This document shows, piece after piece, positions 12,496 to 53,843 of a stretch of DNA of 64,000 nt; the stretch's first letter is position 1; every line of letters starts with the position of its first letter. The notes under the pieces are model-generated. The model saw only the letters and a list, made by a program, of their open reading frames with translations, searched no databases and was not told the origin of the DNA. This DNA is from an uncultured Acidobacteriota bacterium (GTDB taxonomy: Bacteria > Acidobacteriota > UBA6911 > RPQK01 > JAPXNP01). The position numbers were made by a program, and so were the translations under genes. The DNA lies in the NCBI GenBank assembly GCA_963777605.1, contig CAVZRV010000027.1:64001-128000 (forward strand). The letters are read 5' to 3'.

Positions 12496-12690
12496 TTTCA
12501 GTTTGGACTTTGCCGTTCGGTTTCGACCTTCGACTTCGATTTTCGGCTTAGGCGTTCAGGGCTTCCAGTTTCGAATCTTGCGCCCCTGGTGGCAATGCAG
12601 CAATTGAATTCGCACTTCGCACTTCGGTTTCATCGTTCGCCTTCGGAATTCGGTTTCGCCGTTCGGAGTTCCGGATTTCGGGCCTTCGGG
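12496..12690 (+). repeat. Two copies (A1 ~12496-12575, A2 ~12609-12690) of the TTCG-periodic repeat family
   Basis: TTCGGTTTCGACCTTCGACTTCGATTTTCGG; TTCGCACTTCGCACTTCGGTTTC...TTCGCCGTTCGG. Confidence 0.85.
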
Positions 12691-12820
12691 TCGGTGCCAA
12701 TTCACACAATCCCTCCCCCCGGGGGGCAAGTCACCCCCGGAATCCTGGTGTCCCTCCCCAATCTGCTGATATCCTTTGAAGACGCTTCCAATCAAACCCA
12801 TCTTCTGAAAACTCACCACA

Positions 12821-15800
12821 TCAACACACGCTCAGTTCAAGACCATCCTGACTGATCGAGTAGTCGAAGAAGCGTTTTCGGTCATTGATCTTGTTATTGC
12901 TAAGGATCCGTCGAGCATGCCGGGCTGACTCCGATGAACTGCAGATCATGGCCAGGAAGCCTCCGCCGCCGGCGCCGAGGAGTTTGGCTCCTTGGATGTG
13001 GGGGTGGAGTTGTTCCAGCAGGGATTCGATCTCCGGGGTGGTGGAGTTGGGGTCCAGTTCTTTGTTGAGCTCCCAGGATTCGCCGATCAGTTTGCCGAAG
13101 CCGGGCATGTCTCTTCGGGAGAGGGCGTCGGCGAGTTGGTGGGGGAGGGCCTGGAGGTTGCGGTAGGTGGCCAGGGTCTCCCGGTTGCGGTCGAGATAGC
13201 GGCCGACGACTTCGTGGAGGATGTTTTTGGCCAGGCGGCGGATTCCGGTGTACAAGAGGAGGGTCTGTCCTCCGTTCTTTGTCGGCTCGATCAGGTCCGA
13301 CGGGACGAAGTGGATCATGGGGTCGGGCACTAGTCCCGGCCGCGTGGTGATCAGCTTCGTGCCGCCGACGCAGCCGCCGATCTGGTCCTGCCAGCCGCCG
13401 CCGGTGGTCAGTTCCTGCTCGAGTTGCAGCACCCGGTTGAAAAGGTCCCGCTGGGTCGGTTCCCTGCCCGTCAAACGCGCCAGGACCGCGACCAGGACGG
13501 CCGCCATGACGCTCGATGTTCCCAGGCCGCTGCCACTGGGAATTGCCGCCAGCGTGGTCAGCTCGATTCCGCCTCCAAAGTGCTCGAGGATCTGCTCGAG
13601 AGTGGTCACACCTCGAGGCCAGGTCCCGGTTTCGGTCGAGAATCCGGAGAGCACCAGCGCGGCCTTGGCCAGGCCGAACCCGTCGGTCCGGTACTGATGC
13701 AGTTCCTCCAGTTCCCGGATCGTGACCGAAACGCCGTGGTCGATGGAGGTCAACTTGATGTGCGGTTCGGAACAGGTCCGGGCGTAGGCATGGATGGGGG
13801 GCTGGCCGTTCAGGTTGACCGCCACGTTCAGCACGCATCCCCCGTTTTCCAGGGCGTAAGGCGGCGTGTCGGTCCAGCCGCCGCCCAGGTCGAGCCTCGC
13901 CGGCGCGCGCCCCCAGATGATTTCGTCGCTGCGGATCGATATTCTCGGGGGATCAAGCTTCGCTCGGTCCCCCAACAAAATAGTTTGGCTCAGATTGGTA
14001 AAGGCCAGATTCTGGAGGGTAACCGTCCAGTCATCGCCGGACTCGGCGGCGGCGCCGAAATCGACTCCGAACGATTCGAGCCAGGTTCTGGTCTCGTCGT
14101 CGAGTAACCTTTCGACGCCGGTCGAAGTTTCGGCTGCGACCTGTGGAGGCAGCAACTGCATCGCCGAGCCGAGGCTGTGGAAAATGCGGGAGAGCTCCAG
14201 CCGTTCCAGCTTCCAGGCCCCGCTCGTCTCGCCGAACTGCCGGAATGCTTCGTTGAGGATTTCGGCGACAAATGCCTTTCGATCGCCGGCATCGAATCTG
14301 GAAAGCACCAGGGCCAACTCCCGGGCAGAGAATCCACTGTCGAGGCGGAACAGTGAGGGAATCATCGAGCGTAGTTCCCAGGCACGATTGGCCAGCCGCC
14401 GCTCGTGGAACGATTCCTGTTCGGCCAGTTCGGCAATTTCCGCGCAACTGAATCGCTGCGCCTCCCGCCAGACCGCCTTCTCGGCGGTTGAAGCGGCTGC
14501 CGGGTCAACCATCCAAACCCACGAATCCCAGGAAGCCGGTTCGACGATTGCAGGGAACAGCCGTGCGGTCCAGAGGGTCCGCTCCTCCGGGGGAACTCCT
14601 GCATCCCAGATCGACACAGGATCGACATCCATCGACACCATCCAGTCGTCCATCGGCAGGCCGCAGAAGACGATGCCATCGGCAAATGACTGCTGGAAGG
14701 TGTCATCCATCCCATAGCAGCGGACGAACCAACAGAGTTGGCCCGTTTTCGACGTTCCCGGAGTCACATCGAAACAGGCTCCCTGAGGAATTTCGATCGG
14801 TCGATCGAGGTCGAGGCCCACCAGGACGTTGTCTCCGCCAAGTTGAAGATCGGCCCGAACCCGGCAACCTTCCACCCAGGAACGGCTTCCGTCGATGTCG
14901 CCTTCCTCGGTGATGTTCTGGATGCTGAGACAGTGGTCAAACGAGGAGAATCCCTGCTCACGGCTCACCAATTCGGAACCGCTGGTCACCAACTGGCGCA
15001 GCGTGCCGAAGTGGAAGAAGCCGCACCGATTGACCACCTGGCAGGAGAAGGGAACCTCACCAAGGTGCGCAAAAAGTGCTTCCAGATCAGCATCACCGAA
15101 ACGGGAAACGCTGCGCCGGGCTTCCTCCCGGTAGGCAGCAAGGTCGGTCTCGGATCCCATTGCGCAACAGATCTCCCGGTAGAAGTCGAGCCCCTTGTCC
15201 AGGATCGCGGCCGTCAGTTCCGAGCGGGGCAGGAGTTCTCCCGATTCCGATGGCCGAGGGCCAATCAGTTCCAACAGGCGGAGTGCCGTTTCAGCGTCGA
15301 AGCTGAAAATTCCGATATCCAGCAGCGACTTCCCGAACCGGGTAACCGCTCCCAGGCGCACCTGGTCCTCGACGGAAGGTTTTTGAAGAAAGCGCCTGAC
15401 CCGTCCTTCGGGGTCGCGAGAGTAAACTCCGTGATTGGCGGCCAGGGCCGGATCAGCATAGGTTGCCAGGCCGGTCAAACCAGGTCCGGTGGGTTCCAGG
15501 CTTTCCGGATCGAAATCCAGGAGCACGTCGCCCGACGTGATGATCACTTGCCCACGCCCGGTCTGCGGCTCCGGGATGCCCAGGTAGATGGGCAACTGCC
15601 GATCGAACACGGTGACCGGCACGGCCCGGGCGGACTCGACCGGCAGAGGGACAAAGCTCTTGCCGCACGGCCCATAGGGAGGCAGCCGGCGGGCATCCCC
15701 GCCCGCGTGGACGATCAGGATTCGCAGCGACTCGAGAACCTCGAGCCAGGCGCCGCGATCGCCCTTGCGGTCGGAATCCTCCTCCAGTTCTCGATTCAGC

Positions 15801-52042: not shown

Positions 52043-53551
52043 TTGTTGCTAATGGACCACTTCCCCCGATCTCTTCTTCTGCTTTTACTGTTGCTGACAG
52101 CCGCCCCAGTGCTCGGAAGCCCGAGTTCAGGGCCTCCCAATATCGTGATCATCCTGGCCGACGACATGGGGTACGGGGACGTTCACGCACTAAATCCTCA
52201 ATCCACGATTCCGACCCCGAACCTCGACCGGCTCGCCTCCGCCGGGATGACCTTCACCGATGGCCACTCGCCCTCGGCCGTCTGCACTCCGACCCGCTAC
52301 GGACTACTGACCGGCCGATATGCCTGGCGCACTCGCCTGAAGAGCGGCGTTCTGGGAGGCTACAGCCGTCCACTCCTCGAACCCGACCGCTTGACGATCG
52401 CCGGGATGCTCAAACGGGCGGGCTACAGGACAGCAGCGATCGGGAAATGGCACCTGGGAATGCAACTCCCGCTCAAGCCCGGGGAACAATTCGATGACGG
52501 GTGGGACGGTGATCCGGGCGTCGATTTCACACGTCCGATCACCGACAGTCCGATCCATCACGGGTTCGATAGCTTTTTCGGTGTCACAGCATCCCTGGAC
52601 ATGCCCCCTTACGTATTTGTACGAGACGATCACTTCGATTCGGTGCCCGATCTCGAACAGCAAGCTGTCCCTTTCCCGCATTACATTCGCCGGGGACCCC
52701 GATCGAGCGACTTCGTGGTCGACGAGGTCTTGGACCGATTGAAGGACGAGGCCGTTCGGGTCATCGAAAATGCCGCGGCGACTCCTCAGCCACTGTTCCT
52801 TTACCTGGCATTGACCGCCCCCCACAAACCAGCTCAACCCCATGCCCGATTCCGGGGTACGACCGGACTCGGAGAGTACGGAGATTTCGTTTCCCAGGTG
52901 GATTGGACTGTCGGAGCGGTTCTCGAAGCGCTCGACCGCGCCGGGATGAGAGACAACACACTGGTCTTCTTCACTTCTGACAACGGTTCCTACATGTATT
53001 CCTTCAACGAGAGCGAAAATACCGATCACGTTGACGACCCGGGCGAGCAGGGTTACTTCCCCCGCCACCACCGTGCCAACGGACCGTTTCGCGGCACCAA
53101 GGCGGACATCTGGGAAGGGGGCCATCACGTCCCCCTGCTGGCGCGCTGGCCTGGTCGAGTCCGTCCCGGCTCGACCTGCCCGTCCACAGTTGCCCTGGTT
53201 GACCTGTTCGCGACTTGCGCTGAGGTTGTCGGCGTCAAGGTCGACGGTGGGGCGGCTGAAGACAGTTATTCGCTCGTCCGGATGTTGAACGGAGAGAACG
53301 TGTCCCGCCCGGTCCCCGTCATTCACCACTCCATCGATGGCATGTTTTCGATCCGGGAGGGCAACTGGAAGCTCGTCCTGGGTAACGGATCGGGGGGTCG
53401 CGAGGCACCGGCCGGCAAGCCCTTCCAGAAGCCCTACCAGCTCTACGACCTGTCTAACGACATTGGAGAGACACGGGACCTGGCATCTCAGCATCCGGAA
53501 GTCGTGAATCGATTGACTGCCCACCTGGAGTCGATCCGAGGCGAGGACTAA
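52043..53551 (+). CDS. Arylsulfatase (formylglycine-dependent)
   Basis: PNIVIILADDMGYGD, CTPTRYGLLTGR, GKWHLG, TSDNG. Confidence 0.95.
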   Translation: MLLMDHFPRSLLLLLLLLTAAPVLGSPSSGPPNIVIILADDMGYGDVHALNPQSTIPTPNLDRLASAGMTFTDGHSPSAVCTPTRYGLLTGRYAWRTRLKSGVLGGYSRPLLEPDRLTIAGMLKRAGYRTAAIGKWHLGMQLPLKPGEQFDDGWDGDPGVDFTRPITDSPIHHGFDSFFGVTASLDMPPYVFVRDDHFDSVPDLEQQAVPFPHYIRRGPRSSDFVVDEVLDRLKDEAVRVIENAAATPQPLFLYLALTAPHKPAQPHARFRGTTGLGEYGDFVSQVDWTVGAVLEALDRAGMRDNTLVFFTSDNGSYMYSFNESENTDHVDDPGEQGYFPRHHRANGPFRGTKADIWEGGHHVPLLARWPGRVRPGSTCPSTVALVDLFATCAEVVGVKVDGGAAEDSYSLVRMLNGENVSRPVPVIHHSIDGMFSIREGNWKLVLGNGSGGREAPAGKPFQKPYQLYDLSNDIGETRDLASQHPEVVNRLTAHLESIRGED

Positions 53552-53564
53552 TTTGTAGTTGAGT

Positions 53565-53843
53565 CACGAATCCCATCTGGGGTGCGGAAGCGAAAGGGTC
53601 CGCCTTTTCAAGGTCTGGGAACCCTGCGGATGGGTTCAGGAAGCGGAAGCTTCCGTTGCCTCCCGTTCGGGCATTCCACTTCATATTTCGGTTTCGCACT
53701 TTGACTTCGGCATTCGTGTTCGCCGTTCTGGATTGTCGGGTTCCACGTTCAAAGTTCCATGTTTTATGGGCCCCGGAACCAGGCGGTCTGAGGGTGTTTC
53801 ACAGCTTTGCCGGCACGGGGGAAGCTTTCGCTTCCCTGGCGAC
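53565..53843 (+). repeat. Composite repeat F: direct repeat of E
   Basis: GGGGTGCGGAAGCGA...AGGAAGCG.AAGCTTCCGTTGCCTC...TTCG unit...CACGTTCAAAGTTCC...GGGGGAA...TTCGCTTCCCTGGCGAC. Confidence 0.88.

Follow-up and report, generated by a model that had tools for sequence, protein, structure and literature searches.

The 64,000 nt stretch of DNA examined here (positions 64,001 to 128,000 of contig CAVZRV010000027.1 from an uncultured Acidobacteriota bacterium; hereafter the window) carries seven copies, A to G, of an intergenic element in which the tetranucleotide TTCG recurs every few bases. The best explanation, to which we give about even credence, is that these TTCG elements constitute a lineage-specific, dispersed mosaic repeat family, non-coding and unstructured, which was derived from heptanucleotide simple repeats; each copy appears to be a mosaic of degenerate heptanucleotide units, composed of TTCG plus two or three variable bases. 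Heptanucleotide repeats and mosaic intergenic repeats are both known kinds of sequence, and it is the dispersal, in two genomes, of an array with a fixed unit order and a 13 nt super-period that seems to be new. The evidence comes from this 64 kb window and from a single 8 kb locus, L001, in the second genome.

The seven copies and their surroundings

The positions of the seven copies, as proposed in a first-pass annotation made from the sequence of the window alone, were recovered by alignment, by a repeat search and with an nhmmer profile. In a multiple alignment the seven sequences can be matched over about 100 nt with a mean column identity of 66%, and the repeat search grouped them as one direct-repeat family (n = 7, 79 nt, 62-81% identity to the reference copy). 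The profile built from them picked out precisely the same seven copies from the window, each on the + strand and at an E-value between 4e-27 and 2e-24; the next best of the 22 rows listed, a 24 nt match at 34576-34599 on the + strand (E-value 0.59), is a marginal partial copy that lies between trpG and trpE and comprises three to four CTTCGCA-like units. The agreement of alignment, repeat family and profile upholds the view that these are homologous sequences with a kept unit order, not independent microsatellites. The pattern TTCG-N3-TTCG-N3-TTCG, with up to one mismatch permitted, occurs 11 times in the window, always on the + strand and in 10 of the 11 cases within the elements, against a shuffle expectation of 0.95 +/- 1.08 (maximum 5 in 100 shuffles). 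A general skew toward the TTCG oligomer can be rejected, as the 747 nt of elements contain 55 TTCG and 2 CGAA sequences, whereas the window outside them is balanced, with 425 and 395 respectively.

An open reading frame (ORF) survey of the flanks found all seven copies to be non-coding and intergenic, each in a spacer between transcription units, as the first-pass annotation had held. Copies A (12497-12597; profile match 12489-12597) and B (12604-12709; profile match 12596-12709) are in tandem, with the head of A 38 nt from the ATG of the minus strand gene hicB-1 (12458) and the tail side of B toward the stop codon of fkp (12821, minus strand). The head of copy C (16008-16109; profile match 16002-16109) is separated by 22 nt from the start codon of fkp (ATG at 15985, minus strand), and that of copy D (16806-16912; profile match 16801-16912) is 46 nt from the ATG of hicB-2 (16759, minus strand). 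Copy E (22124-22229) is flanked by the stop codon of a NusG-like gene (22360, minus strand) and the start of gmd (22095, minus strand), from which its head is about 29 nt distant. Copy F (51694-51800; profile match 51687-51800) lies 3' of an amidohydrolase gene and 5' of a sulfatase gene, both on the + strand, and copy G (53667-53775) lies 3' of the sulfatase gene, which is here convergent with a rhamnosidase gene on the minus strand. The strands originally given for the flanking genes were correct in the case of A to D (minus) and F (plus), but not in that of E. The + strand ORF to the right of this copy (22276-22908, 210 aa) is spurious, being without any match and overlapping the NusG-like gene (22360-22860, minus strand; NGN domain E-value 2.6e-22, with a weak KOW match). 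As the right-hand neighbour is this minus strand gene, copy E, like A to D, lies between two minus strand genes.

The claim that all copies share one strand holds for seven of seven in the window by the nhmmer profile. However, this co-orientation is weak evidence, because A and B are adjacent and F and G belong to one 290 nt direct repeat, leaving about five independent loci, at which the two-sided p value for a shared strand is approximately 0.06. Around A to E the order is gene stop, element from tail to head, next start, such that the elements are antisense to the flanking genes; around F and G it is + strand gene stop, hairpins, element from head to tail, in the sense of the upstream gene. 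The two groups therefore have opposite sense relative to transcription.

The best-kept part of the element is a head of about 50 nt, consisting of TTCAGTT.GCAC and then TTCG units separated by spacers of 3, 2, 3, 2 ... nt. The 6-7 nt spacing of the motif reported at first pass was thus right, with one correction of detail: the unit spacing of the head alternates between 7 and 6 nt, giving a 13 nt super-period that Tandem Repeats Finder (TRF) reports as period-13 rows, and steps of 8 nt also occur in some places. Both period-7 and period-13 TRF rows are found inside B, C, D and E, and their units are degenerate. The tails are of two types, one made up of TTTCGGG-type units (B, C and D) and the other of GTTCCAN-type units (E, F and G). 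Each copy comprises 10-12 diverged units, and the unit order is kept over about 80 nt in the seven window copies and in three copies from L001.

Copies F and G form part of composite units of about 290 nt (51598-51886 and 53569-53862, both on the + strand), which are direct repeats of one another, 1.97 kb apart and with 77% mean column identity. These bracket the sulfatase gene, and their starts directly follow the stop codons of the genes for the amidohydrolase and the sulfatase. Each opens with a terminator-like hairpin, and a second hairpin then precedes the TTCG array, on whose far side this second hairpin recurs in inverted form; the arrays are consequently framed by two inverted copies of a hairpin module of about 20 nt, and the homology extends past these modules. 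Copies A to E are without framing hairpins. Element ends are fuzzy, and no target-site duplication or terminal inverted repeat was recognised at the borders in alignments of the window copies. The terminator-like hairpin of the composite units also recurs, inverted and with 83-90% complementarity, at the trpB/trpA junction (29794-29829). The amidohydrolase gene preceding F (50389-51551, + strand) is split over two frames, with a 53 nt tandem duplication at the frame change (50840-50882 and 50893-50935, 77% identical).

Traces of duplication surround copies C and D. On their tail sides are hairpin modules at 16163-16225 and 16895-16957 respectively, 90% identical to one another, beyond which lie 3' ends of hicB at 16529-16580 and 16959-17010 (83% identical), the latter a remnant. 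Since C and D share both the hairpin module and the hicB 3' end, a segment consisting of hicB 3' end, hairpins and array has been duplicated; its copies extend over 17010-16806 and 16580-16008, with parts that are 83%, 90% and 63-86% identical. The older hicBA copy has lost hicA entirely and hicB for the most part, and the deletion ends lie within hicB and do not coincide with those of the array. The sequence past copy D (16959-17053) encodes only the C terminal end of this third HicB. The hicA-2 gene (16326-16460) is itself N-terminally truncated, its 44 aa product matching the 58-position HicA profile over positions 31-58 only.

Comparison of the window ORFs with domain profiles identified the region from 1.7 to 22.9 kb as a polysaccharide locus, with genes for a Wzy-like polymerase, a Wzx-like flippase, glycosyltransferases, a sulfotransferase, an epimerase and a PEP-CTERM protein in addition to fkp and gmd. 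It is broken up by transposase remnants and toxin-antitoxin pairs. Domain matches place a DUF5615/DUF433 pair at 10566-11041 and a HepT/MNT pair at 11127-11935; these are joined by a HicA/HicB pair at 12026-12458 and a second HicB at 16547-16759, accompanied by the truncated HicA. One insertion sequence remnant in the polysaccharide locus (547-1735) retains a 1.1 kb segment that is flanked by 33 nt inverted repeats and has broken DUF4372 and DDE_Tnp_1 ORFs, and another (4372-5205) has a DDE_3 transposase gene. The NusG-like gene is the first after secA, and this paralogue stands at the head of the locus, an arrangement reminiscent of the operon-specific antiterminators known from capsule loci.

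The elements thus lie between cassette-like units, namely hicBA, fkp and the sulfatase gene, and both the sulfatase gene and hicBA-2 are flanked by direct copies. The first-pass annotation had put the copies at module junctions and had read them as cassette boundaries: the placement is borne out insofar as the copies are in spacers between transcription units, but the boundary reading is not supported, and the elements seem to bracket modules because such spacers are what they occupy.

Structure, promoters and coding potential

No copy folds better than its shuffled equivalents on either strand, with z scores from -1.68 to +1.22, and none below -2, across 14 folds (seven copies on both strands, with 200 dinucleotide shuffles each). 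At the gathering score, Rfam detected only a tRNA in the window and nothing over any element; with the threshold relaxed to an E-value of at most 1, there was still nothing across 12300-22400. In the 51400-54000 part, the sub-threshold rows were a match to c4-2 beside copy G and a 17.8 bit row (E-value 0.34) over G, and narrower scans of this part again gave nothing at the gathering score. The c4-2 row (53572-53636, + strand, 27.6 bits against a cut-off of 41) falls on the terminator-like hairpin after the sulfatase gene and is treated as a chance match, because the homologous flank of F is without it. The Rfam check called for at first pass thus returned no family match at the gathering score over any element, and the alternative raised there, a structured RNA with cUUCGg-type loops, is rejected by the folding and Rfam results together.

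Sites of the attC type were rejected too, given the lack of hairpin potential and of any attC-type core-site pair in the six element-bearing spacers, where the test sought 7 nt core sites 40-130 nt apart by their consensus; the window contains six such pairs in total, both strands together. Among its 70 distinct ORFs there is no tyrosine, serine or Y1 recombinase domain. To this extent the statement that no recombinase is visible was accurate, but two DDE transposase remnants are present, at 592-1345 and 4372-5205.

A consensus scan found no sigma-70 site inside the arrays, and promoters within them are rejected on this basis; promoter-like sites number one in 11000-23500 and zero in 50500-54500, both below shuffles. 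There are, in addition, short motifs in the gaps between array heads and start codons. An extended -10-like sequence, TGCTATCAT, lies between the head of copy D and the hicB-2 ATG. The motif TGNTANNNT, which has a background frequency of 0.00025 per nt in the window, is found in two of the five head-to-ATG gaps (249 nt in total), being 24 nt before the hicB-2 ATG and 9 nt before the ATG at position 4020 of L001; the corresponding gap at hicB-1 carries TGAGATAAT. If these -10-like boxes are real, the arrays would sit just upstream of core promoters. Short ORFs traverse the arrays on both strands. Small peptide genes within them were nevertheless judged by eye to be unlikely, because copy C has a 1 nt indel and the positions of the stops differ.

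Relatives and other heptanucleotide arrays

Scanning 185,579 species genomes with a 32 nt pattern, which matches five of the seven window copies and none of 100 shuffles, yielded five loci. The source genome of the window was not among the matches, and is either outside that collection or masked in it. Four of the loci are chance or merely periodic look-alikes: two (L002 and L003) are chance matches with E-values of at least 0.088, one (L005) is a short 13 nt repeat, and one (L004) is a different, satellite-like region with tandem units of 118 and 258 nt. These last units, at 6044-7621 of the locus, which is from another Acidobacteriota metagenome-assembled genome (MAG), are themselves built of 6, 7 and 8 nt repeats, and the region resembles the TTCG family only in its periodicity. 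The sole true relative is L001, a locus of an uncultured Acidobacteriota MAG.

In L001 there are copies at 4075-4145 (+ strand, E-value 3e-17), 3269-3157 (minus strand, 4e-16) and 1500-1452 (minus strand, 1.5e-9), as well as partial tails of the element. The copy at 4075 is arranged like A to E, and the other two like F and G. The locus is a toxin-antitoxin array, in which 8 of 22 ORFs, all on the minus strand, have Pfam matches (of the PIN, Phd/YefM, DUF433, DUF5615 and nucleotidyltransferase types). As its TTCG elements occupy both strands within 3 kb, co-orientation is a feature of the window and not of the family. The comparison with gene direction suggested at first pass consequently found no fixed relation, with A to E antisense, F and G sense and both strands used in L001; nor, within 3 kb of L001, is orientation tied to the direction of replication. 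GC skew is negative throughout the window. Head identity averages 72% (61-86%) within the window and 75% (63-90%) between the window and L001.

The window and L001 also have three other families of non-coding repeat in common: an ATTCTCG-type array (94% identity over 36 nt), GGTTYCT arrays and a hairpin element of about 150 nt. The last has 26 nt inverted arms and lies at 31245-31395 of the window, in the 359 nt gap between trpB and trpC; it recurs at 5062-5212 of L001 (68.6% over 156 nt), and a partial copy is present at 17030-17065 of the window. By eye, where the two copies differ in one arm, the other arm seems to carry a compensating change, a pattern that would be in line with either a structured RNA or a cruciform. 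The spacers of L001 are mosaics of several repeat families, and inspection by eye also revealed a module of about 60 nt upstream of two of its toxin-antitoxin operons (1323-1385 and 3007-3070), beside heptad arrays.

When a plasmid collection was searched with copy C, the sole match was to a Burkholderia multivorans replicon (NZ_CP020399.1), in the form of an intergenic microsatellite, (CTTCGCA)4 followed by (CTTCGTG)9, the unit of which is the same as that of the element head; the F composite unit had no match in this collection. Inspected by eye, the stretch in question (1410-1620 of locus L006, taken from this replicon) has an 8 nt repeat chained with the heptamers CTTCGCA, CTTCGTG and CTGCGTG, and so displays stepwise unit divergence within one microsatellite. 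No description of the TTCG family was found among the literature matches listed on acidobacterial intergenic repeats and on toxin-antitoxin and attC arrays, and a search for work on intergenic heptanucleotide repeats in Acidobacteria yielded no paper that combined these subjects.

Arrays with a period of 7 nt are abundant beyond the TTCG elements, accounting for 14 of the 43 TRF rows of the window and 21 of the 27 rows of L001. Among lags of 3 to 12 nt in the window, only a lag of 7 yields 42 nt windows with at least 70% self-identity, at 36 positions as against 0 for each other lag. A perfect GGTTTCT array of 4.3 copies (31068-31097, + strand) is 14 nt from the ATG of the minus strand gene trpB, a (GGTTCCT)x3 array combined with an ATTCTCG-type array (34510-34569, + strand) is directly upstream of trpG, also on the minus strand, and a perfect (GGTTCCT)x6.3 array (60319-60362, + strand) lies between two + strand genes. 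Between the secA stop codon and the start of the NusG-like gene is an inverted pair of 32 nt heptad arrays (22940-23071), 88% complementary and 68 nt apart, from a family that L001 shares (94% over 36 nt). Because some of these arrays are situated in the core trp operon and beside secA, the occurrence of heptad arrays as such is not limited to accessory DNA; the GGTTTCT array upstream of trpB is part of one genome-wide period-7 phenomenon. In the same operon, trpE is split over two overlapping frames (34602-35980, minus strand), with the N-terminal domain at 34952-35980 and the chorismate-binding domain at 34602-35495, which is a frameshift or an assembly error.

Origin, possible roles and known counterparts

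Under the explanation that we favour, the elements would have originated through replication slippage of a TTCGNNN-type heptamer, the pure form of which is known in other bacteria, after which the units would have diverged and their order in the head become fixed. One study (PMC4679880, citing Mrazek et al. 2007) reports that heptanucleotide units are the most frequent among the long simple repeats of many prokaryotes and ascribes them to slippage. Spread may have occurred by local duplication of the element together with the adjacent cassette and, as a second route, by ectopic recombination or gene conversion among the many period-7 arrays; no dedicated site-specific recombinase would be needed. 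The elements would then persist where non-coding DNA is tolerated, after the hairpins of one unit and just upstream of the core promoter of the next. As direct repeats they could passively favour the duplication or loss of intervening DNA, without being cassette recombination sites, and any activity of their own would most likely be independent of orientation and exerted on double-stranded DNA.

A number of observations count against so passive a history. The mean pairwise identity of the TTCG core columns is 0.85, compared with 0.58 for the spacer columns (first nine TTCG units in nine copies, 36 core and 32 spacer columns; 0.89 and 0.59 with slightly different limits). The neutral control, consisting of 100 simulations of uniform mutation of the consensus followed by realignment and presuming a star tree without indels, gave a core-spacer difference of -0.006 +/- 0.043, with a maximum of 0.10. 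Hence the periodic motif is kept better than neutral decay from one ancestor allows, which points to constraint on that motif. Unit turnover by slippage could, however, produce the same core pattern without selection, and the tails do contain runs of near-identical neighbouring units, in which such turnover is visible. Furthermore, head identity that is as high between genomes as within the window fits constraint or mobility better than it fits old neutral copies; all seven window copies are on one strand; and the elements are, by eye, much more alike than the adjacent hicB paralogues, such that they did not simply accompany old gene duplications.

Some of these observations would be accommodated by a periodic operator or architectural array, on which a putative small dimeric DNA-binding protein, with one TTCG box per dimer, would polymerise along the 6-7 bp register and co-regulate or insulate toxin-antitoxin and polysaccharide genes from just upstream of their core promoters. 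A protein-binding array had been offered as an alternative at first pass, and it is supported to some degree by the TTCG cores being better conserved than the spacers, a difference for which the control value is close to zero. The 7/6 spacing is maintained across copies with few gaps, similarity between genomes equals that within the window, and A, C, D, E and the L001 copy at 4075 all end 22-54 nt from a start codon, with -10-like motifs in the intervening sequence in two to three of these five cases; free orientation likewise suits a site on double-stranded DNA. There is also a precedent in plasmid pSM19035, where, according to parts of PMC9499535, at least four contiguous heptads are required for centromere and operator activity. 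Yet those heptads are gap-free (PMC9499535, same parts), whereas the units here are spaced at 6, 7 or 8 nt; no candidate binding protein was identified, none being encoded in the window, and neither side of F, G or the other two L001 copies has a recognisable promoter. As core conservation can also stem from unit turnover, and as the many unrelated heptad families in the same spacers fit a mutational origin better than a single regulator, we consider such an array unlikely, albeit with an appreciable chance of being correct. Rather improbable is a non-autonomous mobile element, resembling either a miniature inverted-repeat transposable element or the repetitive extragenic palindromic (REP) sequences and bacterial interspersed mosaic elements (BIMEs), that was moved in trans and had the composite units of F and G as its full form. 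The two inverted hairpin modules of about 20 nt around the F and G arrays, the varied gene contexts, the occurrence in two genomes at similar identity and the transposase remnants of the window would all be in keeping with mobility. Against these must be set the absence of framing hairpins from A to E, the fuzzy ends, at whose alignment borders neither a target-site duplication nor a terminal inverted repeat was recognised, the non-palindromic nature of the array as judged by folding, and the lack of a Y1 (REP-associated) transposase among the 70 window ORFs.

A role at the RNA level appears more doubtful still. The CGAA sense of the element might act as an unstructured, U-poor leader, providing a ribosome standby site or a target for an RNA-binding protein at genes without a Shine-Dalgarno sequence. 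Copies A to E do have the CGAA sense relative to the gene that follows, from whose start they are separated by 22-46 nt, no Shine-Dalgarno-like sequence was seen by eye in those gaps, folding is no stronger than in shuffles, and an exact TAACTGA heptamer occurs at the gene-proximal end of the head of copy C, recalling the TAACTGA repeats of Beggiatoaceae, a published analogue for which a role of this sort has been proposed (PMC4679880). F, G and two of the L001 copies, however, are opposite in sense to their genes, and -10-like motifs downstream of the arrays in two to three of five cases would leave the arrays outside the mRNA, barring read-through. We attach very little probability to the proposal with which the elements were originally introduced, that they are integron-like cassette boundary sites without attC hairpins, whose TTCG register would be read on double-stranded DNA by an enzyme encoded elsewhere, and equally little to its corollary, that toxin-antitoxin, polysaccharide and sulfatase modules would be exchanged through them in an Acidobacteriota-like lineage. 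It was prompted by the position of the elements between the cassette-like hicBA, fkp and sulfatase units, is matched by the toxin-antitoxin cassettes that adjoin the family in both genomes, and would account for the framing of the sulfatase gene and hicBA-2 by direct copies. The elements nevertheless have no hairpin potential, their spacers contain no attC-type core sites and the 70 window ORFs include no integrase; their polarity with respect to cassettes is inconsistent, both orientations being found in the single-strand toxin-antitoxin array of L001; the decayed hicBA is truncated within the gene and not at the array; and related heptad arrays lie inside the core trp operon. The inference of recombination sites is therefore not supported.

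If the elements are indeed a dispersed mosaic repeat, they indicate that a dispersed repeat family whose unit order is fixed can arise from heptanucleotide microsatellites. They may serve as a lineage marker, given that one of 185,579 species genomes shares the TTCG family by the pattern used, and the arrays both warn annotators of spurious ORFs and mark potential hotspots for duplication and deletion near toxin-antitoxin and polysaccharide genes. Should the TTCG register instead reflect protein binding, they would represent a regulon or chromatin-like feature in a poorly studied phylum, and a chromosomal addition to the few known heptad operator arrays.

The closest counterparts are heptanucleotide simple repeats, among which the short tandemly repeated repetitive (STRR) sequences of heterocystous cyanobacteria are long simple repeats with a heptanucleotide unit. 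These have in common with the TTCG elements a 7 nt unit, an intergenic location, several unit families per genome, restriction to a lineage and the lack of an assigned function, and the window contains perfect arrays of this sort too, such as (GGTTCCT)x6. The TTCG copies, at about 100 nt, differ in consisting of diverged units in a fixed order with 7/6 spacing and, unlike independent expansions of simple repeats, they are homologous along their length, dispersed and present in two genomes.

The REP sequences and BIMEs of proteobacteria are mosaic intergenic repeats found after gene ends, with a short imperfect palindrome as their unit. The TTCG elements are likewise mosaic and intergenic, and in the composite units of F and G a non-palindromic segment lies at the centre, flanked by inverted hairpin modules. 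However, the defining module of the TTCG family is a non-palindromic periodic array, A to E are without the framing hairpins, and the window contains no REP-associated transposase. The attC sites of integrons are imperfect single-strand hairpins with paired core sites, organised with uniform polarity in an array beside the integrase gene. Including those of sedentary chromosomal integrons, they are comparable to the TTCG elements in their length, in their position between cassette-like genes and in the presence of toxin-antitoxin cassettes in their arrays; they are unlike them in that the TTCG elements have no imperfect palindrome, core sites, nearby integrase or fixed polarity.

Two further systems are based on heptamers. 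The TAACTGA repeats of marine Beggiatoaceae, some Cyanobacteria and Bacteroidetes are, in the passages of PMC4679880 concerned, similarly intergenic and close upstream of starts, are found at genes without a clear ribosome-binding site, and have a patchy phylogeny and no mechanism given there as known. The same passages report two to six perfect copies that overlap the ribosome-binding region and are for the most part in forward orientation (PMC4679880), in contrast to the TTCG elements, which have 10-12 diverged units, end 22-54 nt from the ATG and occur in either sense. The arrays bound by the ribbon-helix-helix protein of pSM19035 share with the TTCG elements the arrangement of 7 bp-type units upstream of promoters, and parts of PMC9499535 state that their heptads function in direct or inverted orientation, with at least four units needed. 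These, though, are contiguous, gap-free heptads on a Firmicute plasmid, whereas the TTCG units are spaced at 6 to 8 nt and the boxes of the two systems are unrelated in sequence.

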